From a virus, in the IMG/VR virus record IMGVR_UViG_3300032307_000370, positions 63,726 to 127,725 of that record: a DNA stretch of 64,000 bases. One strand, 5' to 3'. Below are positions 1 to 63,776 of the stretch, piece by piece (the stretch's first letter is position 1; each line of letters begins with the position of its first letter). A program made the position numbers and the translations under genes. A model generated the notes under the pieces. The model was given only the letters and a program-made list of their open reading frames with translations. It did not search any database and had not been told where the DNA came from.

Positions 1-1
1 G

Positions 2-409
2 TCTGTAATGAGAGCATTTGAGGCAATGTGTCACGAACTAAATTTGGTTGGGTGGACCGCAACACAAGGTAATAGAAGTTCTATCTCCTCTGAGGTTGTA
101 ACAACGGATCAGATGGGTGGATCTATTAAGAAAGCACAAGTTGGACACGTTATCATTTCCGTGGCTAAAACTTTACAACAAAAAGAAATGAAATTGGCAA
201 CTATTGCAATTACTAAATCAAGAATAGGTGATGATGGGGTTGTATTTGAGAATTGTAAATTTGATAATGCAATGTTGGAAATAGACACCGAAAGTTCAAT
301 GACATTCTTGGGATTAGAAGAAAAGCAAGAAGAAAGACAAAGACAAAGAGTTAAAGAATTGTTGGAAAAAAGACAACAAAGACAAAAAGACGAAACAAAA
401 AATAATTAA
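2..409 (+). CDS. Replicative DNA helicase (DnaB/T4 gp41-like), C-terminal part; 5' end lies outside the window
   Basis: Frame is open from base 2. [10 protein letters not shown]...[19 protein letters not shown] matches the C-terminal SF4 helicase motifs, followed by a charged tail. Confidence 0.8.
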
Positions 410-422
410 AAATTTAAAGAAA

Positions 423-1370
423 ATGGAAAAAATATTAGTTGAAAATCCTAATAGGTTTGTCATCTTCCCAATTGAGCATAATGATATTTGGGAATTTTAC
501 AAAATGCATCAAGCGGCTTTTTGGACCGCTGAGGAGGTTGATTTAACGAATGATATTCGTGATTGGGAAAAATTGACGGATAATGAGAAGTTCTTTGTAA
601 AGAACGTATTATCGTTTTTTGCGGCTTCTGATGGAATAGTTAATGAGAATTTAGCTGAAAACTTTTACCGAGAGGTACAATACCCTGAGGCTAAGTTCTT
701 CTATGGATTCCAATTAGCAATGGAAAACATTCACTCATTAATGTATTCGTTATTAATCGACACTTATATTAATGATCCAAAAGAAAAAGATGAGTGTTTT
801 AATGCAATTGAGAACTTACCTGCGGTTAAAAAGAAAGCAAATTGGGCGTTAAATTGGATTGATAATTCATCATTCCAAGAAAGATTAGTTGCATTTGCGG
901 CGGTTGAAGGAATCTTCTTTTCGGGATCATTCTGTTCTATTTTTTGGATGAAATCAAGAGGTATTATGCAGGGATTATGTAATGCTAACTCTTTAATTTT
1001 TAAAGATGAGAACTTACATTGTGATTTCGCGATACATTTGTTAAATAACCACTGTGATGAAAAACCATCAGAGAAAAGAATAAAAGAAATCCTTCTATCT
1101 GCTCTTGAGATTGAAAAAGAATTCATAACTGAATCATTACCTGTGTCACTAATTGGAATGAACTCAAATTTAATGAAACAATATTTGGAGTTTGTTGTGG
1201 ATGGATTACTTGTTAAACTTGGTTGTAGTAAACAATTTAATGTAGAACAACCATTTAAGTTCATGGAGCAAATTGCGGTTGAAACCAAAGGAAATTTCTT
1301 TGAATCAAGAACGATGGAATATCAAAAAGCAAAATTGAACGAAACTATCACGTTTGAAGAAGATTTTTAA
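423..1370 (+). CDS. nrdB: Ribonucleotide reductase class Ia beta subunit
   Basis: Di-iron motifs [31 protein letters not shown] and DENLH; W in AAFWTAEE; C-terminal NFFE. Confidence 0.97.
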
Positions 1371-1381
1371 ATAAAAAATAT

Positions 1382-3814
1382 ATGATGTCACTTAAAATAC
1401 TTAAAAGAGATGGGGATAATGTATCATTTAACCCACAAAAAATTTATAATCGTGTAAAACGAGCAGCAAAAGGTTTGAATGTCAATTCGGACGAGATTTT
1501 TATTAAGGTTATTACCTCAGTTCCAACTGAGGGTGAAATAACAACAAAAGAATTAGATAAACTTGTGTATGAAATTGCGGCTTCATATACTGGTAGTCAT
1601 CACGATTACTCAAGATTAGCATCATCAGTTGCTATTTCATCATACCATAAAGAAACTAACCCTAGTTTTTCTGAAACTATGATGATACTTTATAGTGATG
1701 GTATTATACACGATAAATTAATTGAAACCATTAAAGAATATGGTGAAGATACAATTGATGCTGTAATTAATCACGATAATGATTATAATTTTGATTACTT
1801 TGCTTGGAGATCATTACAAGAAATGTATCTATTAAAAAGACCTAATGGGGTTACGATAGAGAGACCACAACATATGTATATGAGAATTGCATTGTGGGTT
1901 ACCGAAAGTTTTGTTGAAGCGGTTGAATATTATAAATCATTATCAAACCAACTAATTTCTAAAGCAACACCAATTATGATCAATTCAGGTACAAAAGTAC
2001 CTCAATTGGCGTCTTGTGTTTTGCATTATAACAATTCAGATTCAAGAAAAGGATTGTTAGATACATTAACTGATATTTCAACATTCTCGTCAGACGCTGC
2101 GGGTATTGGATTATCAATGTCAAATATTAGAAGTAAGGAAAGTAGAATTTCAAGTTCAGGTGGATATGCTGGTGGTTTATTAAAGTATCTTAAAATTGTA
2201 AATGAATCATTACGTTTCTTTAATCAACAAGGACGTAGACCTGGATCTGCGGCGATTTATCTTGAGCCTTGGCATAAAGATATTATTGATCTATTAGATA
2301 TTAAAAAGAATACAGGTGCGGAGGAATTAAGGGCACGTGATTTATTTACCGCTCTTTGGTTACCTGATAATTTCATGAAAGCGGTAAAAAATAATACAGA
2401 TTGGTATTTGTTCTGTCCTAATGATATTATTAGTGCTGGATTGAAACCATTACAAGAATGTTATGGTGAAGAATATGAAGAAGTTTATAATAAAGCCGTA
2501 GAAATGGGGTTAGGTAAAAAAGTTTCGGCTCAAACAATATGGACTAAGATTATTGAATCTCAGGTAGAAACAGGAGTTCCTTATTTGTGTTCTAAAGATA
2601 GTGCAAATAGAAAAACAAACCATCAGAATATTGGGGTTATTAAACAATCAAACCTTTGTAATGAGATTTATCAGTACACCGATGAAGAAACAACCGCAAT
2701 CTGTACTCTATCATCTATTGTATTGAAAAACTTTGTTAAAAATAATAAATTTGACTTCCAATTGTTATTTGAGGAAGTTAGAAAAGTTGTTAGAACTTTA
2801 AATAAAGTTGTTGATATTAATAACTACTCAACACAAAAAGGATTGAAAGGTGGTTTAGAACAACGAGCAATCGCAATTGGCACACAAGGATTAGCGGATG
2901 TGTTCTATTTACTTGACATGATCTTTACTGACGAGGAGGCAAAAACTCTAAATAAACAAATCTTTGAGACAATTTATTATGGGGCGATTTACGAAAGTAA
3001 TGACTTATGTAAAAAAGAAAAATACAAACCATACAAATTCTTCAAAGGATCTCCAATGTCAAAAGGTATTTTCCAATATGATATGTGGGGATTAACTGAA
3101 AATGATTTATCCGGATATTGGGATTGGAATAAATTAAAGAATGACGTTTCAGAATACGGAGTATGTAATTCTTTATTTACGGCACAAATGCCGGTAGCAT
3201 CTTCAGCTAAGATTACTGGTTCATTTGAAATGACAGAACCGGCTCACTCGGCATTATTTAATAGAAGAGTTGTTGGTGGTGAAATTATGATTGTTAACAA
3301 ATATTTGATTGCTGACTTTGAGAAAATTGGTATTTGGTCTGAAGATTTAAAGAATGAAATTATAATGAATGAGGGATCAATTCAAAACATAAACTTTAAC
3401 AATTATTTAGATCCTGAGGATAAAAATTACAATAAGAAAGTAAAAAGAATCGAACACTTAATTCCTAAATACAAAACAATTTGGGAGATTTCACAGAAAG
3501 AATTAATTAATATGGCGGCAGACAGAGCACCATTTATTGATCAATCACAATCAATGAATATCTATATGTCTAACCCAACATTATCAAAGATTACCTCATC
3601 ACATTTCCATTCATGGGAAAAAGGATTGAAAACTTTATGTTATTATGTTAGAACTAAAGCAATTTCAACAGGGGCAAAACACTTAGCGTTAGATTTAAGT
3701 AAACGAGAAAAACCGAAGGTAACACCTGAACCACCAAAGGTTGATTTTTCAAATATGAATTTACCACCAAAACCTGATAGTTCAGAGTTTGAGTGTTTTG
3801 GATGTTCATCGTAA
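1382..3814 (+). CDS. nrdA: Ribonucleotide reductase class Ia alpha subunit with N-terminal ATP cone
   Basis: ATP cone KRDG..FNPQKI; ATP..NSGT; SCVL; QGRRPGS; SNLCNEI (radical Cys); CTLSS; KTLCYYVR; C-terminal CFGCSS. Confidence 0.97.
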   Translation: MMSLKILKRDGDNVSFNPQKIYNRVKRAAKGLNVNSDEIFIKVITSVPTEGEITTKELDKLVYEIAASYTGSHHDYSRLASSVAISSYHKETNPSFSETMMILYSDGIIHDKLIETIKEYGEDTIDAVINHDNDYNFDYFAWRSLQEMYLLKRPNGVTIERPQHMYMRIALWVTESFVEAVEYYKSLSNQLISKATPIMINSGTKVPQLASCVLHYNNSDSRKGLLDTLTDISTFSSDAAGIGLSMSNIRSKESRISSSGGYAGGLLKYLKIVNESLRFFNQQGRRPGSAAIYLEPWHKDIIDLLDIKKNTGAEELRARDLFTALWLPDNFMKAVKNNTDWYLFCPNDIISAGLKPLQECYGEEYEEVYNKAVEMGLGKKVSAQTIWTKIIESQVETGVPYLCSKDSANRKTNHQNIGVIKQSNLCNEIYQYTDEETTAICTLSSIVLKNFVKNNKFDFQLLFEEVRKVVRTLNKVVDINNYSTQKGLKGGLEQRAIAIGTQGLADVFYLLDMIFTDEEAKTLNKQIFETIYYGAIYESNDLCKKEKYKPYKFFKGSPMSKGIFQYDMWGLTENDLSGYWDWNKLKNDVSEYGVCNSLFTAQMPVASSAKITGSFEMTEPAHSALFNRRVVGGEIMIVNKYLIADFEKIGIWSEDLKNEIIMNEGSIQNINFNNYLDPEDKNYNKKVKRIEHLIPKYKTIWEISQKELINMAADRAPFIDQSQSMNIYMSNPTLSKITSSHFHSWEKGLKTLCYYVRTKAISTGAKHLALDLSKREKPKVTPEPPKVDFSNMNLPPKPDSSEFECFGCSS

Positions 3815-3836
3815 GATGGATCGCGTATCATCAAAG

Positions 3837-3868
3837 AAATCCCGGAGTAATTCGGGATTTTTTATTTT
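3837..3868 (+). terminator. Intrinsic terminator after nrdA
   Basis: AAATCCCGGA-GTAA-TTCGGGATTT 10-bp stem (one G-U) with GNRA loop, followed by a T-rich tract. Confidence 0.85.
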
Positions 3869-3900
3869 GTAATGTATTTATTCAAAAATTATTGAGAGTA

Positions 3901-3907
3901 TATTTAT
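3901..3907 (+). promoter_or_regulatory. TATTTAT putative late promoter element (second copy at 3875-3881)
   Basis: 5 nt upstream of the baseplate operon ATG; the same heptamer recurs before many structural genes. Confidence 0.55.
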
Positions 3908-3912
3908 TGAAT

Positions 3913-4371
3913 ATGGCAAATGGAATAACATATGGTATAAATTTCCCGTTTAGAGATTCGTTCGTTGGTAGATATTTAGATACTTCTAACGATAGTGATG
4001 AGGAAATAAGAAGTAATCTTGTACACTTATTATTAAGTAAAAAAGGGACAAGATATTTTTTACCCGATTTTGGATCAAGATTATATGAATATATCTTTGA
4101 ACCGTTAGATGGTCCAACATTTAGTGAGATAGAAAGTGAAATAAGGGATTCGGTTGCTAAATATATGCCGGGAATCTTAATTACTAGTATTAAGATTACT
4201 GACGCATCAATGGGGGAAGAAAATCAAGGTACTTATATAAACCAATATGGTGAGAAAGAATTTACGGTTCCAAACATTGCTCAATTAGAACACACGGCAA
4301 AAGTAAGAATTGATTATAGAAACACTAATAACGCTTTCAATTCAAGCGATTTTGTAATTATCAATATTTAA
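3913..4371 (+). CDS. Baseplate wedge protein, gp25/GPW-like
   Basis: GINFPF...IRSNLVHLLLSKKGTRYFLPDFGSRLYEYIFEP is the gp25 family signature. True start is ATG 3913, because the ORF-track extension runs through the terminator. Confidence 0.9.
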   Translation: MANGITYGINFPFRDSFVGRYLDTSNDSDEEIRSNLVHLLLSKKGTRYFLPDFGSRLYEYIFEPLDGPTFSEIESEIRDSVAKYMPGILITSIKITDASMGEENQGTYINQYGEKEFTVPNIAQLEHTAKVRIDYRNTNNAFNSSDFVIINI

Positions 4372-4377
4372 TAGTAT

Positions 4378-6216
4378 ATGGCAAATAAAAAAATATCGTA
4401 CACAACGAGAGATTTTGCGGGAATAAGAACTGAACTTATAAATTTCACAAGAACTTATTATCCCGATCTTGTTCAAAACTTTAACGATGCTGGTGTATTC
4501 TCAGTATTGTTAGATTTAAATGCTGCGGTAACAGACAACTTACAGTTCCAAATTGACAGAAGTATTCAGGAAACTGTTCTTCAATATGCACAACAAAAAT
4601 CATCGGTATATAATATTGCTAGAACATATGGATTAAAAATACCAGGATCAAGACCATCCGTGGCTTTAGTTGATTTCTCCATAACTGTACCGGCTTTTGG
4701 TGATAAAGAAGATTTAAGATACTGTGGTATATTAAGAAGAGGGTCCCAAGTGAATGGTGCAGGGCAACCATTTGAAACAGTTTATGATATTGATTTCGCT
4801 TCACCAACTAATGCTGAAGGATCACCTAATAGGGTAAAGGTGCCAAATTTTGACTCAAATAATAATATCATTAACTATACAATCACAAAAAGAGAAGTTG
4901 TTGTTAATGGTATAACAAAAGTTTTTAAGAGAGTTATAACACCAAATGATGTTAAACCATTCTTTGAATTATTTTTACCTGAGAAAAATGTTTTGGGTAT
5001 TACAAGTGTCTTACTTAAAGATGGGACGCAATATACTTCACCACCACCAAACCAAGAATTTTTAGGTTTGGAAAATAGATGGTATGAAGTACAAGCGTTG
5101 GCGGAAGATAGAGTTTTTGTTGAAGACCCAACAAAACCGTCAGATCAACCGGGAATTAAAGTTGGTAAGTATGTTGTAACGAACACTAAATTCATTAGTG
5201 AGTTCACACCTGAAGGATTTTGTAAATTAACGTTTGGGGGTGGAAATGTATCTGCTGATGAACAGTTAAGAGAATTTGCGAGAGACGGGGTAGGATTTGA
5301 CCTTAATAAGTATGTTAATAACCTTGCTTTAGGTAGTGCGTTAAAATCAAACTCTACGTTATTTGTTCAGTACAGAGTGGGTGGTGGACAAGCGACAAAC
5401 TTGGGGGTTAATATTATAACACAAATAGGTACAGTTTCATTTTTTGTGAACGGACCATCGGAATCAATAAATTCAACTGTTGTTAATTCACTTAGAGTAA
5501 ATAACGTAACTGCGGCAATTGGAGGGTCCAATCCTCCAACAACTGAAGAAGTTAGACAATACGTTACATATAACTTTGCTGCACAAAATAGGGCGGTTAC
5601 CATAAATGATTATGAATCTGCATTGAGAACAATGCCATCTCAGTTTGGGGCTCCCGGTAAAGTATCTATTGTTGAAGAAAATAATAAAATTAAAATTAAG
5701 ATGTTATCTTACGATACCACCGGTAATTTAACTGAAGTCGTTTCAAATACACTTAAAAGTAATGTTGCAAATTATTTATCTAATTATAGGATGATAAATG
5801 ATTACATTTCTGTTGAAACCGCTAATGTTATTGACTTAGCAATTGATGTTGACGTTATTTTGGACTCAAGTCAAAATCAAGGATCTGTTGTTGCTAAGAT
5901 CATTAATATAATCACTTCGTATTTTAGTCCTGCGGTTAGAGGTTTAGGTCAAAACGTTTACATCTCAGAAATACGACGATTAATCCAAAGTGAAAATGGA
6001 GTTATTTCAATATCCAATATACTTGTTTATAATAAAGTTGGTGGTCAATATTCGTCTTCTCAAACATCACAACCATATGAAGATGCATCAACAAAACAAA
6101 TCCAATTAATTGCGGATACTATCTTTGCGGAACCAACCCAAATATATCAAATTAGATATCCAAATAAGGATATTACCGTTAATGTTCTTAACTTTAAAAC
6201 GATTAATTTCGCCTGA
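4378..6216 (+). CDS. Baseplate wedge subunit (T4 gp6 / baseplate J-like)
   Basis: RDFAGIRTELINF N-terminus; YRVGGG; AIGGSNPPTTEEVR; AQNRAVTINDYE; lies directly after gp25. Confidence 0.9.
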   Translation: MANKKISYTTRDFAGIRTELINFTRTYYPDLVQNFNDAGVFSVLLDLNAAVTDNLQFQIDRSIQETVLQYAQQKSSVYNIARTYGLKIPGSRPSVALVDFSITVPAFGDKEDLRYCGILRRGSQVNGAGQPFETVYDIDFASPTNAEGSPNRVKVPNFDSNNNIINYTITKREVVVNGITKVFKRVITPNDVKPFFELFLPEKNVLGITSVLLKDGTQYTSPPPNQEFLGLENRWYEVQALAEDRVFVEDPTKPSDQPGIKVGKYVVTNTKFISEFTPEGFCKLTFGGGNVSADEQLREFARDGVGFDLNKYVNNLALGSALKSNSTLFVQYRVGGGQATNLGVNIITQIGTVSFFVNGPSESINSTVVNSLRVNNVTAAIGGSNPPTTEEVRQYVTYNFAAQNRAVTINDYESALRTMPSQFGAPGKVSIVEENNKIKIKMLSYDTTGNLTEVVSNTLKSNVANYLSNYRMINDYISVETANVIDLAIDVDVILDSSQNQGSVVAKIINIITSYFSPAVRGLGQNVYISEIRRLIQSENGVISISNILVYNKVGGQYSSSQTSQPYEDASTKQIQLIADTIFAEPTQIYQIRYPNKDITVNVLNFKTINFA

Positions 6217-15716: not shown

Positions 15717-15766
15717 TTTTGAGTATTTATATTTAAACGATAAACAAACTTTAAAAAATAATAATT

Positions 15767-19600: not shown

Positions 19601-19692
19601 CAATATATAACAATAATTGTTTACCGTTAGATATTACCCAAAACTTTGAATTAAATGTTGGGATAAACTTTGATATTTTATGTAATCCGTGA
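16675..19692 (+). CDS. Baseplate wedge protein with P2 gpI / T4 gp7-like motif
   Basis: LKNLAQTLGW...LFKSKGTRKSIEILLRMVG is the gpI-like KGT motif. Confidence 0.6.
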   Translation: MAVNTYKCPPQPASGQGTFSDNLVGFQLVDGGGLTQANFEFTTNISEKQNRTFSIGSFSDPISLDSLDINSIEESKKLITDNFRVYPNFDLSQVTNFTMFGSLTKRLSTSVTNIINYFPGALDIQSTQPNFVTSITVQNAVYNSVEDETYFEIPISVIRNPFGIDYTVNATRNLELREIPVSYLRNFTTQYLKYSLFFNDVEYPVSDFIPAQPTDTVFKIYVNGNPFLNASSISDNFIIRPKQLYVNKVFNENLDQVENFLLNRNMVPIYSAYFQVPVENEDGTYSYSQEVAIFPLNGTWNLDIVSPKFTNYLTKLNNIAEYIDLYKTNLITRFLTADAIKEFDTPDRKMEKILQIYGRSFDETRKFITALANMNSVNYNVKNDIPSQLLKNLAQTLGWNINISPITNDQLLSSVFSDGSNAFTGLPQGQTPEELNYQYFRNLILNSAFLFKSKGTRKSIEILLRMVGAPEALTEFNEHVYVADQKINLRQFDIQYAQISGGTYSQELPVLDTNDLFSIMGVQYTGFTTTTVTQDVTLTLIDYPIDSFGYPSMPVPTDTYFFQIGGGWFESTPQHRMPEQVDLTNSVFTGANPNYQTKLLPFNYGQEYLERYRSFPYMNLGFNLRKTVDNKKSWTDNEKYLRKNFDGNFNAYYGVSDDRLVINVKNIDLFMNPAQGLLYDVWTMSRRYNYPIPEQGLFYVDPTYCNPYPNIEYPNRGGIDWTVIVPRPKQKTFFEFAQTFWKNMINVRNRQFMTDGKTSGYPTLSSIYWKYLESEQAINVRNDNFNYQTMIDYVDGMGDYWIRLVEQMIPATTIWNTGVKYENSIFHRQKFVWRRQRGCEIIPVPCKPCKLITQIFSYDCPVQQTIIGLYPWDTNPSITSFGALLGDSLTTYGNNNNVDINNDCLLNTLESDWYIDIRIDGNPIIIYEFFNGVGYSNPSLSAPTPNDWLNGLYDALVGLLDYGLDYIIDTNDQTITIYNNNCLPLDITQNFELNVGINFDILCNP

Positions 19693-22343
19693 GTTGTGGA
19701 CAAATACTATATAATCTTTATATAACTGGCGATTGTACTAATACAAACGTTGGTGAAATTTATATTGAAATAACCGGAGGAACCTCTCCTTATACTGTTT
19801 ATGAAGTTACGTCAACAGGATTATTACCAACATCTGCGGCAACCACAACTTATTATTTTAGTGGGATGTCTGCCGATACATATACTTTGGCAATACAGGA
19901 TTCTTGTATAAGTCCGGGACCTGATACAATATATTTAAATATACCAATATCGTCGGGCACAACAATAAGTGTAGAATCTGAAATAGATACTATATGTGGT
20001 ATTGATAATGGTGAGATTACATTTGGGTTTTCACCTTTTTACGGTTATGCTGAGGGATACTTATATGAAACAACAGATGGTTATATAACCAGCGGATCAA
20101 CAGGAACAAGTGGGTTAACATTCTCAAATTTATCTGGGGGTACCTACTATATTATTGGTGATGATGGGGCCGGGTGTACGGGATCAAGTGCTAGTGTTAT
20201 TATTTTAACATCAACAACCTTAGATTATGGGTTTTATGTGGTTGATGATGCTAGTTGTAATGCCGCTGGTGGTTCGGGTAAAATATTTGTTACCGGACAA
20301 ACAGGTGTTGGACCATATACGTATATTTGGAGTGATGGTCAGACAGGATCAACAGCGACAGGACTAACTATTGGTTATTATAATGTAACTGTGACTGATT
20401 CAACGGGTTGTTCTGCAACTAGTGGAACATCCGTTAATAATGTACCACCAATTGGTATATCTTCATTTACCACAACAGGTAGTACTTGTTTTAATAGTGA
20501 TGGTTCGGTTGAAGTTACGGTGACTGGAGGTACGGCTCCATTCTTTTTCTCAGGGTCTAATGGTGATACAATTATAACTTTTTCAAATTCATATATTTTT
20601 GAAAATTTATCTTCCGGAACATTAACGGTTACAGTTAAAGATGCTGGTTTGTGTAGTGATACTCAATCGGTATCGTTAATAACTCCAAATGGGTTTGCGG
20701 TATCGTCTATATCATCTACAAACTCAAATTGTGGTAGTAATGGATCAATAAATATATTAGTTAATACAGGATCACCAACGGGTACATTTACATACACAAT
20801 ATTAGATTCTTCAGGTAATACTGTTAATACGGTTACATTAGGAACTAATGCGACATTTAATAATTTACCATCTGACACGTATACGATATTAATTGATAAT
20901 AATTCCGGTTGTATTTATACAGGATCTACTACTATTGTTAATGTTAATTTATTTACAATAACTGCGGTTACAACTAATACTACTTGTGGTTTAAATAATG
21001 GAACGTTACAAATATTAACAAGTACTGGTGGAACATTACCATATAGTTATCAAATAACGGGATATGCGGTTTCTCCAATTAACAGTTATAATAATTTACC
21101 TTCAGGGTTTTATACTGTTACAGTTACTGATGCTAATGGATGTTCTCAAACAACAACATCATATGTTGGACCATCAAGCTCTGTTTCTTGTAATTTATTT
21201 ACTATACAACCTGTTAATGGAAATGATGGTGAAATTACTGCTTTGGTTAGTAGCGGAACACCACCTTTTACATATAATTGGAGTTCAAATGTCAATTCTC
21301 AAACAGGATCTACGGTTACTAATTTAAGTGCGGGAACTTATACATTACAAGTGGTTGATAGTGTTGGATGTGTGGTTAATAAAACAACAACATTAAATGG
21401 AACAATACTTTTAGGAAATTATCAAGTTTATAATATTAGTGATACTAATTTTGTTAATAGTGGAATTGAAGGTAGAAGAGGGATAGGTCAAATGTATAAT
21501 GAAGGGTTTTTTGATTTAACTGAAAATGATACTAATTGTATTCTTAATAGTGGGGAATTTATTATTGAAACCATAGTTAATGGTGAGGTAAAACAAAACT
21601 TATTTTACACATCAACGAGTATATATGATTTCCCAACAGACACTGAATGGACGGATGAAGTTAAAAGTATGTTATTATCGTATCCTGACATTGGAGAAGT
21701 TGATATAGATATTACTAAAAATAAAATGACGGTCGTTAATGATTGTAAGGATATTAATAAAAATTGTAATCAAACTAAATTCAATACATTAGCGGATGCT
21801 AAAGTTGTTGTTAATTTAATTATTAATTATGATATTTCTTGTGTTCAGTGTGATTACCCACCACCAAGTCCTACTATGACATCAACACCAACAAACACTC
21901 CGACAAAAACTCCAACACCAACACCAACAAATACGTTGACACCAACAAACACACCAACAAATACTCAGACAAACACATTAACACCTAGTGTGACAAAAAC
22001 AAATACACCTACACCCACATTAACAAACACTCAAACCCCAACGGTTACTCCAACGGTCACTCCAACATTAACAATGACACCAACGGTTACTCCAACATTA
22101 ACATTAACTCCAACTCCAAGTGGTAATTTTTCGGTTTTTGCGGTAATCTATTGTTGTGATTTAGTAACTAAAGAATGGGTGTTATTACCAACATCAACAT
22201 CTATTGGAACTGTAATAGTTGGTAACGACTTCCAATGTTATACGGTGGAATCAGTGGATCCACAACCAATAACTTTAACTTGGAGTGGATTATCATACGT
22301 TGATTGTGATCTTTGTATTGCCTCTTATCCTTGTAGCGCATAA
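19689..22343 (+). CDS. SprB-repeat tail/adhesin protein with Pro/Thr stalk and Cys-rich tip (GTG start)
   Basis: Repeats such as DGSVEVTVTGGTAPF, GEITALVSSGTPPFTYNWS and YTVTVTDANGCS; about 88-aa TPT tract. Confidence 0.7.
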   Translation: MSCGQILYNLYITGDCTNTNVGEIYIEITGGTSPYTVYEVTSTGLLPTSAATTTYYFSGMSADTYTLAIQDSCISPGPDTIYLNIPISSGTTISVESEIDTICGIDNGEITFGFSPFYGYAEGYLYETTDGYITSGSTGTSGLTFSNLSGGTYYIIGDDGAGCTGSSASVIILTSTTLDYGFYVVDDASCNAAGGSGKIFVTGQTGVGPYTYIWSDGQTGSTATGLTIGYYNVTVTDSTGCSATSGTSVNNVPPIGISSFTTTGSTCFNSDGSVEVTVTGGTAPFFFSGSNGDTIITFSNSYIFENLSSGTLTVTVKDAGLCSDTQSVSLITPNGFAVSSISSTNSNCGSNGSINILVNTGSPTGTFTYTILDSSGNTVNTVTLGTNATFNNLPSDTYTILIDNNSGCIYTGSTTIVNVNLFTITAVTTNTTCGLNNGTLQILTSTGGTLPYSYQITGYAVSPINSYNNLPSGFYTVTVTDANGCSQTTTSYVGPSSSVSCNLFTIQPVNGNDGEITALVSSGTPPFTYNWSSNVNSQTGSTVTNLSAGTYTLQVVDSVGCVVNKTTTLNGTILLGNYQVYNISDTNFVNSGIEGRRGIGQMYNEGFFDLTENDTNCILNSGEFIIETIVNGEVKQNLFYTSTSIYDFPTDTEWTDEVKSMLLSYPDIGEVDIDITKNKMTVVNDCKDINKNCNQTKFNTLADAKVVVNLIINYDISCVQCDYPPPSPTMTSTPTNTPTKTPTPTPTNTLTPTNTPTNTQTNTLTPSVTKTNTPTPTLTNTQTPTVTPTVTPTLTMTPTVTPTLTLTPTPSGNFSVFAVIYCCDLVTKEWVLLPTSTSIGTVIVGNDFQCYTVESVDPQPITLTWSGLSYVDCDLCIASYPCSA
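21858..22121 (+). repeat. Pro/Thr (TPTxTPT) low-complexity repeat tract
   Basis: PPPSPTMTSTPTNTPTKTPTPTP...TPTPS, with synonymously diverged codons. Confidence 0.9.
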
Positions 22344-22380
22344 AATACACTTTTAAAAAATAATTAGTATCTTTTAATTT

Positions 22381-23361
22381 ATGGAAGATATAATTTTTGT
22401 TACGGCACAACCTGATGTCCCTTATTTTCATTGGCAGGTTAAACTATATACCCATAATTTTATTGAAAAAGGTATCGACCCATGTCAAATCCACGTCGTT
22501 TTTGGTTTAACTAATGGACAAAAAGAACCATCTAAAGGTGCTTTAGAATTATGTGATTATGGTTTTAATGTACATTTTTATTATGATGATAGAATTGGTA
22601 AAAATTATATACCGAGTATAAAACCGTATTTAATATCAAGATGGTTGTACGAACATCCCGAATATGGTAAAACTTTCTTTTTACATGATGCGGATATTAT
22701 CTTTAGAGAATTACCTGATTTTGATAAATTAATGAAAGACGATACTTGTTATTTGTCGGATACGATTGGTTACATTGGGTACAATTATATTATGGATTGC
22801 TGTAAAAGGTATGAGAATGTTCACCCAAAATCAGAAAAAGGTCAATTATTAAAAGAAATGGCGAATATTGTTGGGTTGGATGTGGAAACAATAAAATTAA
22901 ATCAAGAAAATTCAGGTGGTGGTCAGTATTTGTTGAAAAATATGACATACGAACTTTGGGAAAAAATTTATATGGATTGCGTCCCACTTTATAAACAAAT
23001 GCATGATTACCATAAAAGACATCCAATTAGTCCTGGTGAGATACAATTTTGGACTGCCGAAATGTGGTCATTATTATGGAATTTGTGGTTATTTAATTAT
23101 AATACGAAAGTTGTTGATGACCTTAATTTTTCTTGGGCAACTGATGATATTACAGTTTACGAACAAAGACCTATTTTACATATGGCTGGAGTTACAGATA
23201 ATTTAAGAGGTACCAAGTTTTATAAGGGGGAATACATTAATATTGACCCCATTCAAAAATTAAAAGAGAACCCATCACATTTTGATTATATTGAAAAAAA
23301 TAGTACAACAATAAAATATATTGAAGTAATGAAATCATTCATTCAAAAAACAATAAATTGA
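22381..23361 (+). CDS. GT-A glycosyltransferase resembling plant Hyp-arabinosyl / Ser-galactosyltransferases (GT95/GT96-like)
   Basis: Ordered motifs YFHWQ, YIPSIKPYLISRWL, HDADIIFR (DxD), WTAEMWS and PILHM parallel the recalled SERGT1 motifs YFDWQ, YPAINKPVGVLYWL, LDADMIIR, WISEMYG and PVLMHY. Confidence 0.7.
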   Translation: MEDIIFVTAQPDVPYFHWQVKLYTHNFIEKGIDPCQIHVVFGLTNGQKEPSKGALELCDYGFNVHFYYDDRIGKNYIPSIKPYLISRWLYEHPEYGKTFFLHDADIIFRELPDFDKLMKDDTCYLSDTIGYIGYNYIMDCCKRYENVHPKSEKGQLLKEMANIVGLDVETIKLNQENSGGGQYLLKNMTYELWEKIYMDCVPLYKQMHDYHKRHPISPGEIQFWTAEMWSLLWNLWLFNYNTKVVDDLNFSWATDDITVYEQRPILHMAGVTDNLRGTKFYKGEYINIDPIQKLKENPSHFDYIEKNSTTIKYIEVMKSFIQKTIN

Positions 23362-23389: not shown

Positions 23390-25459
23390 ATGGCGATAAT
23401 ATATCAGGTACAGAATACAAGTCCAAATATATACAATAATTTTACATTTATTGATGGTAATGCGATTAATAAAACATTGGATTTATTACCAAATGTGGTT
23501 TATTATATTAATGGTAATAGTGTTGTATCACCTGCGCCTTTTATTACTATACTAAGTTTAGGTAAAGAAAACATAAGATATTGCTTTCAAAGTTGTTGTA
23601 ATGGGGACATTATTGATTTTGATGGTAGTAATCAATATCCATTTATTACTTATCAAATTGGTGACACTTTATATTTTGACCAAGCAATTTCATCTTCAAA
23701 TCCCAATAATTATAAATCAGGTTGTTACGAATTAATAAGTAGTGGTGACACAAATACTTATTCATGTTCGGTTGCGGGATCTGAAAATGTTAGTGTTATT
23801 GTTTTTGATAGTACATCGTATGATGATTGTAGTACTTGTATTGTTGACCACAGTTGTTGTGCAAATTATTTAGTAACAAATCAGTCATCAACAAATGTAA
23901 AAACATCTGTTGAATTTACACCTTGTTGTGGTGAGAATAAAACATCGCCATATGTCATACCTTATCAGAGTGCAATCTCAATATGCAGTTCAACGGGAGT
24001 TAAAGTTTTAGGGGGGGATGTTCAAGTTATTAATAATGGTGATTGTCCTGATTGTCCTGTTACTCCAACGACTACTATATCACCACTTGTTACTACAACT
24101 ACAACATTAATACCACCACCCGTACCGCCAATTGAACCTCTTAATGAGTGTTCTGTGATAACTATATTCCCACTTGGGGTTGAATGTTTTACTGTTGACC
24201 CAACAACGGAAGATTCATTTGACGGGGCAATTACATTAGGTATAACAGGAGGAACACCACCATATGAGGTTGTTTGGGAAAACGGATCGTTAGCTCAATC
24301 ATTAAGTAATATTGGGGTTGGTTCATACAATTCAATAGTAACGGATTATTATGGTGATTTCACTGCTTATACTACTTGTGTTTTAAGTGCTGAAACACCA
24401 ATCATAACAACTACAACAACAAATATCTCACCATTACCTTCTTATCAAGATATATGTATTACAATAATAAGAGGTAATAAACAGAGTTCTTATGTTGAAT
24501 ATTATCAGTTTGATTTTAATGATTACATTGGTAACTACCCAACTTGGACAAATACGACAGATGGGTTAGGCATTGTGTGGAATGAAACGAATAATCAATG
24601 GGAAGTTTCTGGTTGGACAACAGGTCAATTAATTAATACTAATCCTGCGACACCACCATTAAGTGGGTGGGATTCTTTAGGATCTACGTTACCTGATAGA
24701 ATATTATCAATAACCGCTGTTTTAGGGTTGTGTCAATTATTGAGTACCCCTAATTTAACTATACGTGTAAATGATCCTGAATGTGGTTGTGATGGTAGTT
24801 TAATTTTAACACCATTCGGAGGAACACCACCATACCAATATTCAATAGATGGGGGAAATACATATGCTTCAACAACAATTTATAATGATTTATGTCAAGG
24901 GTCATATGTTGTGTATGTTAGAGATGCTTCAGGATTCACATATACTCAAACCGCAACTTTATCGGCACCTACGGCTTCGGTTAATTATATATTAACTATG
25001 TCTTATTTAGGTGGAAACACATTTGGAGTTAGTATTTCACCATCATTACCAATTGGTACTACGGTAACTTTTGATGTTATACATGAAAATACGTTTAATG
25101 TCGGACCTCAACCTTCAAGTGCAACATATAATAATGTGGTAACACTAAATGTTAATGGGTCACCTGTCCCTTATACTCCACCACCTGTAATAAATCAACT
25201 TTCACCTGTACCACAACCATTCCCTTGTCAAGGATCATTCCAATATAACACAACAAAACAATTTACTTGGGTTGGTTTATCAATGACATTTGGAACTATT
25301 ATAAATGGTTCATTTACAAATACAATATCACCTGTTTTACCTACACCACATTGTTTTGTGGCAACATCATCATATTACATTTATATTAATAATGTGAGGA
25401 TAAATAATGATTGTGATACAATAAGAGTTGTTAATCCTAAACCACCAAAAACTCAATAA
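23390..25459 (+). CDS. Cys-rich SprB-repeat tail/adhesin protein with Thr/Pro linkers
   Basis: DGAITLGITGGTPPYEVVW and DGSLILTPFGGTPPYQYSIDGG; TTTTT and PPP tracts; TATTTAT at 23363-23369. Confidence 0.65.
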   Translation: MAIIYQVQNTSPNIYNNFTFIDGNAINKTLDLLPNVVYYINGNSVVSPAPFITILSLGKENIRYCFQSCCNGDIIDFDGSNQYPFITYQIGDTLYFDQAISSSNPNNYKSGCYELISSGDTNTYSCSVAGSENVSVIVFDSTSYDDCSTCIVDHSCCANYLVTNQSSTNVKTSVEFTPCCGENKTSPYVIPYQSAISICSSTGVKVLGGDVQVINNGDCPDCPVTPTTTISPLVTTTTTLIPPPVPPIEPLNECSVITIFPLGVECFTVDPTTEDSFDGAITLGITGGTPPYEVVWENGSLAQSLSNIGVGSYNSIVTDYYGDFTAYTTCVLSAETPIITTTTTNISPLPSYQDICITIIRGNKQSSYVEYYQFDFNDYIGNYPTWTNTTDGLGIVWNETNNQWEVSGWTTGQLINTNPATPPLSGWDSLGSTLPDRILSITAVLGLCQLLSTPNLTIRVNDPECGCDGSLILTPFGGTPPYQYSIDGGNTYASTTIYNDLCQGSYVVYVRDASGFTYTQTATLSAPTASVNYILTMSYLGGNTFGVSISPSLPIGTTVTFDVIHENTFNVGPQPSSATYNNVVTLNVNGSPVPYTPPPVINQLSPVPQPFPCQGSFQYNTTKQFTWVGLSMTFGTIINGSFTNTISPVLPTPHCFVATSSYYIYINNVRINNDCDTIRVVNPKPPKTQ

Positions 25460-25478: not shown

Positions 25479-28013
25479 ATGGCTTATATAATAAAAAATA
25501 CATCAGGACTTGTTAACACTAGAGTGACAGATACAGGTAGATTAAAAATGTCCCAAGGGAATTTTAATATATCATATTTCCAAATTGGGGATAGTGAGGT
25601 ATCGTACGATAAAGTTTCTAGTAGTTATAATCAGGCAAATAGTTTTGTTTTGATACCACCATTTGGTAGTCAAAATAGTGATGGTGTACCAAAATCAAAT
25701 AAGCAAAACGTTAAATATCCTTATTATGTTGATGGAAATGTGGGAAATACCTATGGGATTCCTTATATGGACTCAACAGTTGAAAATGTGTTTAATAGGG
25801 CTCCTCTTAGAGGTTTTTTCTCAGGTAATACAACTGCAAGTACAATATCTTGGAGCGCATTAACCAGTAATAGTTATGTAAAAACATCTAATTATTTAGT
25901 GGATCCATTGTCATTAAATGGCACAAATGAAATAACATTAATATATTCAGGTTGTAATACTTCAACAATAGGGACATTTGAAGTTGGGGATTTTATTACA
26001 ATATATTTTGATGGTTTAGGTTGTCATAATTGTAGTTGCACTAACTTACCGACACCAACACCAACGGCATCTCAAGGGTCTACACCAACTCCTACACCAA
26101 CACCATCGGCGACTAGCGGAACTATTAATTGTGCTAGTCCTACGCCAACACCGACACCATCTAAAACGCAGTGTCTAACACCAACACCAAGTAGACAATG
26201 TCCGGCGCCACCGGATCCTGTTTGTTTAATGTCTATGTATAGTTGTTATCCTATTTTAACTTATAGAATAGTTGCGGTTTGTGATAACAAAATAACATTA
26301 GATAGAACAACTCCTAATTTTGGGTTAATAAGTAACGAATGTTGTTTCAGGGCTTTAATTTACCCTAAAACAATGACTGATTTATATGATAGTATAACAC
26401 CTAGTCCTCATTGGGATAATGATGTTATTAATTATGAGACAATATGTGATGTTGATCAATTTGATGTTAAAATTTGGAACATGAATATTCCGTGGACTGA
26501 AAGCCCTGCGGGATTACTATCAACTCAATTTGAAGATTATACTTATTTTGGTTCCGTAAATTATATTGGAAGTAAGGAGTATTTTGGTTATAATTCAAAT
26601 TCAGGGCAAACATTCTATGTAAATTCAACACTAAGTGCTGAAACTACTGACACATATTATTATAATTCTTTTGATGAGGTAGTTAAAGTTGAACCTGAAG
26701 AACAAAAAGCAATTGCGATTATACATTATACTAACCAAACAATTGATTTCTTCTATGGTGAGAAATTTGCGTTAGAACCGTATGACCCATCCAACCCTGC
26801 TGATACAACAGGTCAAGCAAGAAACTTTAAATTACATATTCCTTGGATTATGTGGCATAAAAATCCTGAATGTTGTTTTGGTGATACGTTTTGGGTAGAT
26901 CCTCCGGGATTTGATGGTAAAGGATTATTTGAAGTCCATTATATGGAATCAAATGTCAATAATGATATGAATAATCCGGGGTTAAGATATTTTCATTTAT
27001 GGGATACTCACCCTAATGATAATGGATTACCAAGTAGAATAGGAAAAGTTTTCCCTGATAGTCAAACTATTATTATTGACGATGAAGAGATTGTTGCCGC
27101 ATTATCTTATAAATCAAATAGAAATTGGACATTACCGGCACCACAAGTATCGTTAATTACTCCAAACATATGTGATACAACCTCATCTACAATAAATGGT
27201 ATATTAACGGGTAGCAATGAAACTATGTTCATCACATATCGTTTAACAAATGATTATGGATTTACAAATTCATTACATTGTAATTATTACTTACAAATTA
27301 CAGGTAACAATAATGATTGTAATCCTGATACATCTAAGAATGTTGCAATAAGATTTGCTGGTGAATTTGGTTGTTTAGTTGTACCTGGTTATAATCCAAC
27401 AACCACAACTACAACATATAGTCCTGTTACAACAACAACAACATATAATAGTCCTGTTACCACAACAACAACATTATGTCCTACCTGTGATATACCAAAT
27501 GGGTTTTATGCTACAAAATTTGAAGTATTGGCTCAAAAAGTACCAACAGGAACGAGACCTAACCCATCTAATTGGAGATTGATTGATTTTACTAATAGTA
27601 TAAGTGGTGACACAATCAATGGTTATATAACTGAAGATGCATTAACGGGAACTACATTTATAGTGACAGAATCATTATATAATTCGGCACCTTATTACAA
27701 TTTAAATAATTATATTGATTTAACACCACTTGGTAATACAAGTCCAAAATTAAACTTTGGGGATGAATATTATTTTTACGGTGGGATTGAAACTGACATT
27801 CAGGCAACTATATATGAGTTAATGTATAAAGTTAATTTAAATTATACTGAATTCCAAAATACATCTAACCCAACTTGGACACCGGGAACAAAATCATATA
27901 TTACTGAAATAGCGTTGTTGGATGATAAAAAAGACGTGTTAGTAGTTTCAAAATTACAATCACCTGTCTTAAGACAAGGTATCCAACAATTTTTAGTTAA
28001 GTTTGATTTCTAA
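25479..28013 (+). CDS. Tail fibre-base / collar-like structural protein with PT and poly-T inserts
   Basis: N-terminal VTDTGR..ISYFQIGD and C-terminal ITEIALLDDKKDVLVVSKL; TATTTAT at 25465-25471. Confidence 0.55.
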   Translation: MAYIIKNTSGLVNTRVTDTGRLKMSQGNFNISYFQIGDSEVSYDKVSSSYNQANSFVLIPPFGSQNSDGVPKSNKQNVKYPYYVDGNVGNTYGIPYMDSTVENVFNRAPLRGFFSGNTTASTISWSALTSNSYVKTSNYLVDPLSLNGTNEITLIYSGCNTSTIGTFEVGDFITIYFDGLGCHNCSCTNLPTPTPTASQGSTPTPTPTPSATSGTINCASPTPTPTPSKTQCLTPTPSRQCPAPPDPVCLMSMYSCYPILTYRIVAVCDNKITLDRTTPNFGLISNECCFRALIYPKTMTDLYDSITPSPHWDNDVINYETICDVDQFDVKIWNMNIPWTESPAGLLSTQFEDYTYFGSVNYIGSKEYFGYNSNSGQTFYVNSTLSAETTDTYYYNSFDEVVKVEPEEQKAIAIIHYTNQTIDFFYGEKFALEPYDPSNPADTTGQARNFKLHIPWIMWHKNPECCFGDTFWVDPPGFDGKGLFEVHYMESNVNNDMNNPGLRYFHLWDTHPNDNGLPSRIGKVFPDSQTIIIDDEEIVAALSYKSNRNWTLPAPQVSLITPNICDTTSSTINGILTGSNETMFITYRLTNDYGFTNSLHCNYYLQITGNNNDCNPDTSKNVAIRFAGEFGCLVVPGYNPTTTTTTYSPVTTTTTYNSPVTTTTTLCPTCDIPNGFYATKFEVLAQKVPTGTRPNPSNWRLIDFTNSISGDTINGYITEDALTGTTFIVTESLYNSAPYYNLNNYIDLTPLGNTSPKLNFGDEYYFYGGIETDIQATIYELMYKVNLNYTEFQNTSNPTWTPGTKSYITEIALLDDKKDVLVVSKLQSPVLRQGIQQFLVKFDF
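26049..26219 (+). repeat. PTPTP repeat tract
   Basis: PTPTPTASQGSTPTPTPTPS...PTPTPTPS...PAPPDP. Confidence 0.85.
27396..27482 (+). repeat. Poly-Thr tandem repeat (three units)
   Basis: PTTTTTTYSPVTTTTTYNSPVTTTTTLCP; near-identical DNA units agtcctgttac(a/c)acaacaacaaca. Confidence 0.85.
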
Positions 28014-28676: not shown

Positions 28677-28732
28677 TATCGGGTAAAATACCGATAATTT
28701 GGAATATCGTCTTTATAGACGATATTTTTTTT
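28677..28732. terminator. Double hairpin / bidirectional terminator between convergent genes
   Basis: TATCGG-GTAAAATA-CCGATA, then AATATCGTC-TTTATA-GACGATATT followed by a T-run. Confidence 0.75.
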
Positions 28733-30323
28733 ATGGACAAACCACTACATTATTTATTACACCGAAAGAGTTAACCTCAACTGCATAAATAACAACACCT
28801 GGTGCGGAAACTGATGATATGGCAATCCATTGGTTGTTTTGTCCCGAAACAGGTAAATTCGTACCATTATCTATTAATGTTGTTCCAATAGTTGGTGTTG
28901 GTGTTGAAGTTGTCCATCCGTTACTTGCAAATGAGAAATAATTACTACACGCTAAGACATCTGTTGACCACCAATTAGACCCACTTGTCCATTCATAAGA
29001 TGTTGGCTGACTTGTTAAAGATGGTGTAAGGGTCATTGTTGGTGTTGGGCTTGGGCTTGGACTTGGAAAACAAGGGGATCCCGTTTCACTAACAACTATT
29101 GCACCAAATAATGAATATGGTGTTGATAATGAATTAATGATTATGCTTTGGAAGGCATTTAATGTTTGAGATGATGATAATCCTGATAAGTCGGTGTAAA
29201 TATATGTTTGACCATTAATTGGTGAATTATTCGTTAATAAATATTGTGTACAAATAGCATTATTACAACATACTCCCACATTAGTAATTATTGCGCTACC
29301 CGTTGAAATTGTAGGTACTGTAGATGAACAAATGCGAACTATTCTATCACCCCAAGCTTGCCAACCCATTGATCCTGGTCTTAAATCTACTAATCTATTA
29401 TCTGAACAATCATTAAATGTGATAACTGAAAGTTGGGCACTACTATCAAAGTTTGATATTGTATATGAGTTACATAAACAAGGTTTTGTTGGTGTTGGAG
29501 TCATTGTTGGTGTTACGCTTGGTGTTGGTGTGATTGGAATACAATTTAAACAACTACCTTGACTTGAAGGTCCGTATTCTGTGGTAATTGTGATTTTATC
29601 ACCACCACTAATATTATCAACAATTGTTTGATAAATAAAACATGATGATTTACCATTAATTAAACCACCATAAACATCACCAATAACAAGTAGATTTCCG
29701 TTTGAATCAAATAAAGTTTGAGTTGTATAATATTCAATACCCGTAAAACAATCTTCAAACTTCTTACTTGTTGCACAAACAATAAATCCATCAACATTAT
29801 TAAATTTAGCTACACCATCATAATTACAAGGTCTATCAATTGGTGAAGAGGGTGTTGGTGTGTTAGTTGGTGTTGGAGTTGGGGTTGGTGAATAAGTATT
29901 TGCGGTTACATCTAAGGTAACTCCACCACATACATTAGTTGGGGTTGGAGTCATTGTGGGTGTAGGTGTTAGAGTAGAAGTTGGGGTGGGTGTTGGTGAT
30001 GGAGCAACATCACAATCAAATTCCGCATTAAAATCAATATCACAAGGTGCCGGTGTGGGAGGAGTTGGTGGACAATCTCCTTCAGATAAAATTGATGAGT
30101 AAAAATCGGGACAACTACTTGAAGTTGGGTTTGGACCAAACAAAATACAAGGATCCCCTAAGTTAGCGGCTAAACACCATCTATTTTCGGTTGATGAATA
30201 AAAAATATAGTAACCATTTGTGGCTCCCGTATAGTAATCTAAACTATTGTATAGACCATCAATGGTATATGTATCATCATATATCCCTGCATTACTAATA
30301 CATATATCTGTACTACAACTCAT
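28731..30323 (-). CDS. Cys-rich Pro/Thr-repeat structural/adhesin-like protein
   Basis: 530 aa with about five PTPT tracts separating Cys-containing modules. Confidence 0.65.
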   Translation of the reverse strand: MSCSTDICISNAGIYDDTYTIDGLYNSLDYYTGATNGYYIFYSSTENRWCLAANLGDPCILFGPNPTSSSCPDFYSSILSEGDCPPTPPTPAPCDIDFNAEFDCDVAPSPTPTPTSTLTPTPTMTPTPTNVCGGVTLDVTANTYSPTPTPTPTNTPTPSSPIDRPCNYDGVAKFNNVDGFIVCATSKKFEDCFTGIEYYTTQTLFDSNGNLLVIGDVYGGLINGKSSCFIYQTIVDNISGGDKITITTEYGPSSQGSCLNCIPITPTPSVTPTMTPTPTKPCLCNSYTISNFDSSAQLSVITFNDCSDNRLVDLRPGSMGWQAWGDRIVRICSSTVPTISTGSAIITNVGVCCNNAICTQYLLTNNSPINGQTYIYTDLSGLSSSQTLNAFQSIIINSLSTPYSLFGAIVVSETGSPCFPSPSPSPTPTMTLTPSLTSQPTSYEWTSGSNWWSTDVLACSNYFSFASNGWTTSTPTPTIGTTLIDNGTNLPVSGQNNQWIAISSVSAPGVVIYAVEVNSFGVINNVVVCP

Positions 30324-31531: not shown

Positions 31532-31539
31532 TATCTTTG
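31532..31539 (+). promoter_or_regulatory. Bacteroidota-type -7 element
   Basis: TATCTTTG matches TAnnTTTG. Confidence 0.55.
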
Positions 31540-54348: not shown

Positions 54349-54378
54349 TTGTAGGTTTAAAAAAAAATATTACCTTTG
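54349..54378 (+). promoter_or_regulatory. Early promoter with Bacteroidota -7 element
   Basis: TTGTAG...TACCTTTG (TAnnTTTG at 54371-54378). Confidence 0.55.
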
Positions 54379-62428: not shown

Positions 62429-62720
62429 TACTGAGATTACAGTTTTAGATGCAATCACAACACCAAACGAATTAATCCGTGAAACCCTCATTAATTTTAT
62501 GTGGGGGTTACTTGGAAATTCAGTTGTGGTATTTGTATCTAAGGAAATGGACTTTATGGTTTTAATTAACTATATTATATATTATATCCTAATCTCTTAC
62601 ATAGTTAATAGAAAAAAATATGAAACTATGTTAGGTAAATTCATAGTACTTCCTGGATCTGCGGCAATAGGGGCTTTTACAGGATATAAGTTAGCGCAAA
62701 TAATAGTAAATTCATTATGA
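62328..62720 (+). CDS. Membrane protein (start uncertain)
   Basis: Three hydrophobic segments; the upstream ATG overlaps DUF3310 by 101 nt. Confidence 0.5.
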   Translation: MQEKKEKTKNLRTSERPSGTSNTTSKQSKKTGLDTEITVLDAITTPNELIRETLINFMWGLLGNSVVVFVSKEMDFMVLINYIIYYILISYIVNRKKYETMLGKFIVLPGSAAIGAFTGYKLAQIIVNSL

Positions 62721-63652: not shown

Positions 63653-63776
63653 AAATGAATGGCAAGGACGTTCAAAAGAACAGATTGAAAGAAATTATAA
63701 AGTATTTTGGATTGGAATAATAATATCTTTTTTCATTGGGGCTGGACTTTTAATTATTAATTTACTATCATTATAA
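63633..63776 (+). CDS. Small single-TM protein (47 aa, absent from ORF track)
   Basis: MAMKWNRNEWQGRSKEQIERNYKVFWIGIIISFFIGAGLLIINLLSL. Confidence 0.55.
   Translation: MAMKWNRNEWQGRSKEQIERNYKVFWIGIIISFFIGAGLLIINLLSL

Follow-up and report, generated by a model that had tools for sequence, protein, structure and literature searches.

Here we report that a gene of a large phage, represented by the IMG/VR record IMGVR_UViG_3300032307_000370, encodes a glycosyltransferase (GT) that is likely to take part in the O-glycosylation of threonine (Thr) tracts in the phage's own virion proteins, be it as the enzyme that begins the glycan or as one that elongates it. The gene is located at 22381-23361 on the plus strand of the window, that is, of the whole stretch of 64,000 nucleotides analysed (positions 63,726 to 127,725 of the record), and its product of 326 amino acids (aa) is almost certainly an enzyme of the GT-A, GT8-like class. 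The narrower reading that we favour, an initiating O-glycosyltransferase acting on these tracts, is probable. The initial annotation of the gene, made from the sequence alone, had proposed a peptide O-glycosyltransferase resembling plant cell-wall enzymes, rather than a modifier of DNA or lipopolysaccharide (LPS). Gene context across unrelated phages favours a Thr/Pro-rich virion acceptor, in keeping with the first part of this proposal, whereas a plant-like hydroxyproline (Hyp) acceptor is unlikely.

The enzyme and its family

The gene is a genuine, uninterrupted ATG-started open reading frame (ORF) in the window translation, and all seven motifs named in the initial annotation were found in its product in the order given there: YFHWQ (residues 15-19), YIPSIKPYLISRWL (76-89), HDADIIFR (102-109), GYIG (130-133), GGGQYLL (179-185), WTAEMW (224-229), and PILHM (264-268). 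The protein matches phrog_4417, a group of 'unknown function', over its full length (E = 1.6e-70) and has no Pfam match even at E <=10. The enzyme family is nameless in both Pfam and PHROGs, and a full-text literature search found no paper on the phrog_4417-type family. A word-indexed search returned 1348 relatives of the 326-aa protein, and a second search seeded with a 38%-identical family member returned 3507. In a HMMER profile search of 1.84 billion representatives clustered at 50% identity, 996 clusters were matched at E <=0.001 and 559 at <=1e-30. The family is also carried by 77 records of an annotated phage collection at 33-38% identity, nearly all of them labelled hypothetical, in phages of Lactobacillus, Enterococcus, Staphylococcus, Lactococcus, Clostridium, Lacticaseibacillus, Chryseobacterium, and Arcanobacterium.

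Conservation was scored on the best 150 representatives (28-67% identity). Residues Y76, D103, D105, Y131, and G180 are invariant among them, and at least 90% share W18, Q19, P82, Q182, Q222, W224, M228, W229, W233, H267, and G270. The motifs listed above are thus the conserved core of the family and not chance strings.

An AlphaFold2 model built from a 22-sequence alignment (mean predicted local distance difference test score, pLDDT, 90.8; predicted template modelling score, pTM, 0.90) has a Rossmann-like alpha/beta/alpha sandwich with a central mixed sheet, as is characteristic of the GT-A fold, and a DxD motif after a beta-strand. The model opens directly with beta-strand 5-11 and a hydrophobic N-terminal segment is absent, which bears out the earlier statement that the protein has no signal peptide. 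The gene and its putative functional sites are as follows.

22381-23361, plus strand: glycosyltransferase gene, 326 aa; soluble GT-A fold in the AlphaFold model, phrog_4417 at 1.6e-70, GT8/GT24 structural matches
22687-22695, plus strand: DxD motif codons D103-A104-D105, following strand 98-101; D103 and D105 invariant
22909-22926, plus strand: codons of N177-S-G-G-G-Q182, preceding strand 183-186; G180 invariant, G179 and Q182 kept in at least 90%
23044-23082, plus strand: codons of the aromatic-rich stretch Q222-F-W-T-A-E-M-W-S-L-L-W-N234, within helix 223-237 of the model
23179-23181, plus strand: H267 codon (motif I-L-H-M-A-G-V)

D103 and D105 are the presumed ligands of a divalent metal and of the diphosphate of a nucleoside diphosphate (NDP)-sugar, and H267 is a candidate third metal ligand, presumably equivalent to the late His in GT8 enzymes. 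The N177-Q182 segment resembles the 'N-S/A-G' donor-sugar loop of GT8. The aromatic-rich helix, with Q222, W224, M228, W229, and W233 all highly conserved, is a candidate acceptor or sugar-face site.

The best Foldseek matches in PDB are the catalytic domain of UGGT (GT24), WbbM, xyloside xylosyltransferase 1, and glycogenin (GT8), with E-values of about 5e-7 to 1e-5 and TM scores of 0.41-0.50. An exhaustive VIA-align search gave top matches of 209-245 aligned residues at 6-12% identity, with scores of 14.8 for glycogenin, 14.7 for the Skp1 alpha-galactosyltransferase 6mw8, 14.2 for LgtC, 14.1 for UGGT, 13.7 for WbbM, 13.6 for LARGE1, and 13.5 for GlyE. A GT8-type fold is suggested by the best structural matches of the protein, which are of GT8 and GT24, and by the conservation of H267 and N177-S-G as sequence positions. 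The phage family differs from these enzymes (glycogenin, 6mw8, LgtC, UGGT, GlyE, and the xylosyltransferase domain of LARGE1) in its identity of only 6-12% to them and in two long helical insertions (residues ~134-173 and ~190-237) that are rich in conserved Trp and Tyr. The Pfam model Glyco_transf_8 (PF01501) found no match at E <=1 in the whole record; the same model matched in 6 control genomes. A phmmer search against PDB gave a single chance match only. TALE-repeat matches in a PDB profile search were rejected as a repeat-summing artefact, being repeated weak matches at profile positions 144-174 (about residues 150-182 of the protein).

Many family members are longer than the protein studied here: 90 of the 149 best representatives have at least 450 aa, and the phrog_4417-type domain is usually N-terminal. 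The long forms were scanned with Pfam (10 at first, and 45, largely the same proteins, again within a set of 104), and 11 family-member matches to GT-type second domains of the GT2, GT7C, GT6, and GT25 types were obtained, namely six to Glyco_transf_7C, two to Glycos_transf_2, and one each to Glyco_trans_2_3, Glyco_transf_6, and Glyco_transf_25. Several of the scanned long forms had no Pfam match. The detected fusions fit an enzyme with a part in glycan building. Together with the GT-A fold and the DxD motif, they uphold the original identification of the protein as a glycosyltransferase.

Threonine tracts in phages that carry the gene

We inspected the gene context in five annotated phages from five genera. 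In all of these unrelated phages the GT gene lies inside the structural module, beside proteins tagged with poly-Thr. In Staphylococcus phage SA2 it is found between the tape measure gene and the gene for the major tail protein, the C-terminus of which carries eight Thr; in Enterococcus phage VFW it lies between head and connector genes, and the C-terminus of the major tail protein is a poly-Thr tag. The gene of Lacticaseibacillus phage R3.3 is located directly 3' of the probable capsid gene, whose product ends in two Thr runs, and the probable tail protein of this phage has six Thr at its C-terminus. Lactobacillus phage Iacchus has a 168-aa ORF two genes upstream that ends in two runs of seven Thr, and Chryseobacterium phage MA9V-3 has two upstream ORFs with poly-Thr/Ser tracts of 69 and 29 aa. 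The tags of the Firmicutes phages are nearly pure Thr, with little Pro or Ser, and Thr is the common denominator of the tracts. SA2 also has a 90-aa ORF (L086, 5652-5924) that overlaps the end of the tail gene and is 44% Thr, with a 55-aa poly-Thr tract; it has the appearance of a tail-protein extension produced by frameshifting, which would yield a long-tagged minor form.

The presence of the GT gene was compared with that of the tracts using a strict definition (a run of at least 8 Thr/Ser with at least 6 Thr, in any ORF within 10 kb) and a loose one (Thr/Pro/Ser tracts). No tag is present in five complete phages (of Paenibacillus, Bacillus, Clostridium, Butyrivibrio, and Streptococcus) that encode a homologous phi13-type major tail protein but lack the GT throughout their genomes. 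We further fetched 80 IMG/VR loci with a homologous phi13-type tail protein, 76 of which lack the GT, and found neither a poly-Thr tail nor a strict tract in any of the 76; the four GT-bearing loci are relatives of VFW, two with strong and two with weak tags. Strict tracts were found in 57 of 80 diverse GT-bearing loci, as compared with 0 of the 76 GT-less loci (Fisher p about 3e-24), and loose tracts in 75 of 80 and 11 of 76, respectively. Grouping the GTs at 50% identity gives 10 clusters, each of which has tracts (strict ones in nine); the control tail proteins fall into only four clusters.

Gain and loss within a single lineage point the same way. Of the 40 IMG/VR proteins found to be related to the R3.3 capsid protein, 38 are accompanied by the GT, and the capsid tag is kept in 37 of these 38. 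The sole untagged GT-bearing relative (L302) has a C-terminus that reads as a frameshifted poly-Thr region, the cause of which could be either a genuine slip or an error in sequencing the repetitive ACN run. The near-identical Lacticaseibacillus-type siphoviruses G352 (L265) and G353 (L267) differ at this position: G353 has both the capsid tag and the GT, whereas in G352, which is rated 100% complete, no family member is found and no GT gene separates the capsid gene from the connector genes. The body of the G352 capsid protein is 91% identical, and a Big_2 immunoglobulin (Ig)-like domain (2e-15) replaces the poly-Thr tag. This comparison indicates that the capsid tag and the enzyme were lost together, with a classical decoration domain in their place.

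These contexts bear on two other substrates that a phage glycosyltransferase might have. The first is phage DNA, with glycosylation of hydroxymethylated or hydroxylated pyrimidines serving restriction evasion. GT-A enzymes that hypermodify phage DNA do exist, according to excerpts of PMC13326640 and bioRxiv 10.1101/2023.12.21.572611, and large phages often modify their DNA. This reading nonetheless fits poorly because homologues sit between capsid and connector genes in temperate siphoviruses of only 36-38 kb, and because the capsid-tag swap, like the link to Thr tags, points to protein. DNA methyltransferases but no base hydroxymethylase are among the families listed for the 44% of the genome that is at hand, and we regard DNA as a most improbable substrate.

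The second is a host envelope glycan (teichoic acid, cell-wall polysaccharide, LPS, or capsule), the modification of which would block superinfection or alter a receptor, with the Thr tracts being unrelated linkers. Phage glycosyltransferases that remodel host surface glycans are well known (see the review cited in PMC12619734), the prophage GT-A enzyme TarP being an example, and LgtC and WbbM are among the structural matches of the protein. Against such a role, the enzyme is soluble, with no membrane segment, and its gene belongs to the late structural operons of lytic as well as temperate phages, not to the surroundings of lysogeny or lysis modules; nor would envelope modification explain the statistical and gain/loss link to the Thr tags. 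It is therefore an unlikely alternative, if somewhat less so than DNA glycosylation.

The nearest precedent for O-glycosylation of virion proteins is found in mycobacteriophages. According to an excerpt of PMC12619734, which cites Freeman et al. 2023 (Cell Host Microbe 31:1216), the capsid and tail-tube subunits of the phages Che8, Corndog, and Myrna are glycosylated at their C-termini, and the same excerpt describes mycobacteriophage GTs as thought to decorate their own particle. As in that system, the poly-Thr tags of R3.3, SA2, and VFW are found at the C-termini of probable capsid or tail proteins, and the GT gene of these relatives lies in or beside the structural module that encodes the tagged subunits. 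In the window, the gene is located between fibre-like genes with Pro/Thr tracts; here the tracts form Pro/Thr linkers inside fibre-like proteins and an insertion in the tail sheath, in contrast to the C-terminal position in mycobacteriophages. The family also differs in its hosts (Bacillota, Bacteroidota, and those of aquatic giant phages), and for it glycosylation is a prediction.

Surroundings and expression of the gene in the window

The record, whose second half makes up the window, has a length of 127.7 kb and is rated by CheckV as 44% complete, which corresponds to a phage of ~290 kb; close relatives sit on contigs of 270-318 kb. The GT gene is part of a run of co-oriented large genes and is flanked on both sides by genes for SprB-repeat proteins. 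The neighbouring genes of interest, together with a sugar-nucleotide gene at the end of the window, are the following.

19689-22343, plus strand: upstream neighbour, 884 aa, SprB-repeat fibre/adhesin-like protein (SprB 4.2e-22; weak virion structural PHROG match), with a Pro/Thr tract of ~90 aa from residue 723; candidate acceptor
23390-25459, plus strand: downstream neighbour, 689 aa, SprB-repeat protein (SprB 2.5e-09), with short TTTTT/PPP below the strict threshold; candidate acceptor
25479-28013, plus strand: 844-aa protein with (PT)n at 198-231 and poly-Thr at 640-655, no family match; candidate acceptor
28731-30323, minus strand: 530-aa protein with five (PT)n tracts, no Pfam match; candidate acceptor
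62717-63652, plus strand: NDP-sugar epimerase/4,6-dehydratase of the short-chain dehydrogenase type, 311 aa (PF01370 5.2e-58; PF16363, GDP_Man_Dehyd, 4.9e-52; phrog_540, nucleotide-sugar epimerase)

Strict Pro/Thr tracts in the window are confined to the first, third, and fourth of these genes, with shorter Thr runs in the second, so that four of the 52 window ORFs bear tracts and all four lie within 7 kb of the GT. Six further tract ORFs are found in the whole record, up to 85 kb away; nine ORFs in total pass the screen and the downstream neighbour is a tenth candidate. One of the distant ORFs encodes the tail sheath (L262, 342-3671; 1110 aa; PF04984 and PF17482), in which the sheath domains are preceded by an insertion containing two poly-Thr runs. 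At 1110 aa this sheath protein is far above the usual size.

The epimerase/dehydratase possibly supplies the donor sugar, although a link to the GT is tentative. Its gene is located at the very end of the record, and more sugar genes may lie past the contig end. About 70 kb upstream of the GT, a 534-aa ORF (L264, 1408-3012) has a weak GT2 match of 21-24 bits, at the cut-off, and the adjoining 278-aa ORF (L264, 201-1037) has a faint GT90 match (E = 0.005). The pair is flanked by two Pro/Thr-tract ORFs and may represent another locus for glycosylation. The GT2-like ORF was also considered as a counterpart of the second domain found in fused family members, and this was rejected, as it has no similarity to the C-terminal domain of a fused family member.

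The initial annotation had also assigned the gene a host-like promoter element, different from the late motif of its neighbours, which might allow the enzyme to be made before its substrates.

22368-22375, plus strand: TATCTTTT element, ending 5 nt before the ATG; unsupported as a promoter

The element is present, as stated, but its proposed role finds no support. With 19 occurrences in the window, where 15.6 would be expected, the pattern TATCTTTK is not enriched, so the presence of TATCTTTT carries no weight; the element also departs from the Bacteroidota-type TAnnTTTG at its last base, lacking the final G. A terminator-like site was not found between the GT and the upstream fibre genes, where the spacer is only 37 nt, and a sigma-70-type promoter scan of the window gave the same result as shuffled sequences. 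A different motif, TATTTATAT, occurs on the plus strand at 15724, 23363, 25465, and 45832, which is 15-45 nt upstream of the gene starts at 15767, 23390, 25479, and 45855, and thus also ahead of the two genes that follow the GT. The motif is a candidate promoter element of the phage; its window-wide count (9 against 6.1 expected) is not enriched. Boxes of the Bacteroidota -7-like type, TATCTTTG and TACCTTTG, were noted at 31532, 39820, and near 54375 (plus strand), ~20-27 nt ahead of the gene starts at 31558, 39852, and 54402; like the SprB repeats, they hint at a Bacteroidota host.

The other genes of the window (1-6216 and 30577-62157) encode both ribonucleotide reductase subunits, thioredoxin/glutaredoxin-like proteins, a DnaJ-type chaperone, a glutamine-synthetase-like domain, a sigma-70 factor, several DNA methyltransferases, SbcCD-like nuclease subunits, a primase, and gp25-like baseplate wedge proteins.

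Acceptor, relation to plant enzymes, and significance

Whether the enzyme places the first sugar bears directly on its function. The main rival explanation is that it adds a later sugar to a virion O-glycan begun by another phage or host enzyme, in the manner of GlyE, XXYLT1, or UGGT. In its favour, several GT8/GT24 enzymes among the top structural matches elongate glycans, many relatives carry a second GT domain as a fusion, and the same genome has the weak GT2-like ORF with its faint GT90-like neighbour. An elongating role is harder to reconcile with three siphoviruses (38-89 kb) in which the gene adjoins tagged capsid or tail genes with no other GT in the flanks, the flanks being the part of these genomes that was covered, or with G352, in which the capsid tag and the GT were lost together. 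We consider such a role improbable, but less so than any of the other alternatives.

Several points weigh against initiation at Thr tracts. The compared loci are not independent of one another, and at the level of clusters the contrast is only 9/10 versus 0/4 (p = 0.005). The controls are mostly Firmicutes-type siphovirus modules and the GT-bearing loci mostly come from large aquatic phages, so that composition and ecology are unmatched. The G352 tail protein still ends in poly-Thr, which means that a tag can exist without the GT and that there is no strict one-to-one dependence. In the present genome the tracts are spread over 127 kb and not limited to the surroundings of the GT; they are a genome-wide trait of large virion-type proteins, and their local clustering is therefore only partly informative, since it partly reflects the position of the GT in a fibre module. 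Pro/Thr linkers are, moreover, common in unglycosylated fibre and adhesin proteins. With the glycan-elongating UGGT, GlyE, and XXYLT1 among the closest solved enzymes, another enzyme might place the sugar that this one extends. Finally, for every family member we infer glycosylation from sequence, model, and context.

The initial annotation had compared the protein with two plant families, GT95 (HPAT) and GT96 (SERGT). HPAT1-3/SGT1-type enzymes place the first sugar on Pro-rich, hydroxyl-rich repetitive proteins, and GT95 is stated to be related to GT96 (review, PMC8012813). The Pfam HPAT model PF23452 (cut-off 23.9 bits) found no match to the 326-aa protein or to the six-frame translation of its genome, none in 116 relatives scanned singly (12 and 104), and none in 49 family-bearing viral records; PF23741, used as a test for DUF7164, found nothing in the phage's own genome. 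PF23452 also found nothing in 301 genomes from the phylum of a family-carrying metagenome-assembled genome, a sample of genomes of ~1 Mb, apparently from a small-genome lineage, that is probably uninformative. A likeness in motif order to SERGT1 and the HPATs was presumed in the initial annotation. What speaks for kinship comes from the language-model neighbours in the ESM Atlas, where 18 of the 30 nearest named clusters carry PF23452 and six others carry DUF7164; in one bacterial cluster of this kind PF23452 is found in 58% of the members, and in a mainly viral one in 10%. These neighbours are a lead toward GT95, not a test of it. The best solved structures are those of GT8/GT24, the outcome that had been named in advance as refuting plant kinship, yet this is not decisive because the PDB searches contain no GT95/GT96 structure. 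At the level of family models, GT95/GT96 membership was thus not found, and a specific kinship is conjectural.

A true homologue of the plant Hyp O-arabinosyltransferases or Ser galactosyltransferases, acting on extensin-like Hyp or Ser, would agree with these Atlas neighbours, with the relation between GT95 and GT96 (PMC8012813), and with the Pro-rich tracts of this genome. It would be at odds with the silence of the HPAT model in the protein and all relatives tested, and with the nearly pure Thr tags of the Firmicutes phages. A prolyl 4-hydroxylase-type 2-oxoglutarate (2OG)-Fe(II) oxygenase (PF13640) was not found in the 127.7-kb record, which covers 44% of the genome, making a plant-like Hyp acceptor unlikely. 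The phage enzyme is soluble, unlike HPAT and SGT1, which are anchored in the Golgi membrane; the type II membrane anchor of HPAT-type enzymes is absent from it, and its likely acceptor is Thr rather than Hyp, which would require a prolyl 4-hydroxylase. We regard an enzyme of this plant type as very unlikely.

Under the favoured reading of initiation at Thr tracts, the protein would act as a soluble, cytoplasmic, divalent-metal-dependent GT-A enzyme of the retaining, GT8-like kind, made together with the late structural genes. It would bind an NDP-sugar and pass the sugar to the hydroxyls of Thr, and perhaps Ser, in Thr/Pro-rich virion tracts before or during particle assembly. The candidate acceptors are the surrounding fibre/adhesin-like proteins, the other tract-bearing proteins encoded across the genome, and the tail sheath insertion, and the resulting particle would carry mucin-like glycan brushes. 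For this scheme we infer the acceptor, the donor sugar, the retaining chemistry, and the biological benefit, which could lie in shielding, in adhesion, or in making linkers soluble or stiff.

A much broader proposal, which we put forward as speculative, is that the family initiates a widespread and undescribed mucin-like Thr O-glycosylation in tailed phages, among them those of Bacillota and Bacteroidota and giant aquatic phages. The poly-Thr or (PT)n tag would then be portable between capsid, tail tube, sheath, and fibre and exchangeable with Ig-like domains, and the enzymes would share ancestry with GT95/GT96. If the enzyme does glycosylate Thr-rich tags, many phages would be sugar-coated, including therapeutic Enterococcus and Staphylococcus candidates, dairy Lactobacillus and Lactococcus phages, and abundant freshwater giants, with effects on particle stability, on recognition by the immune system, on binding to mucus or host glycans, and on the reading of cryo-electron microscopy maps and virion proteomics. 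The tag and the enzyme would also offer a compact pair of parts with which chosen proteins could be O-glycosylated in the cytoplasm, and the plant GT95/GT96 link, if demonstrated, would bear on the origin of extensin-type glycosylation.

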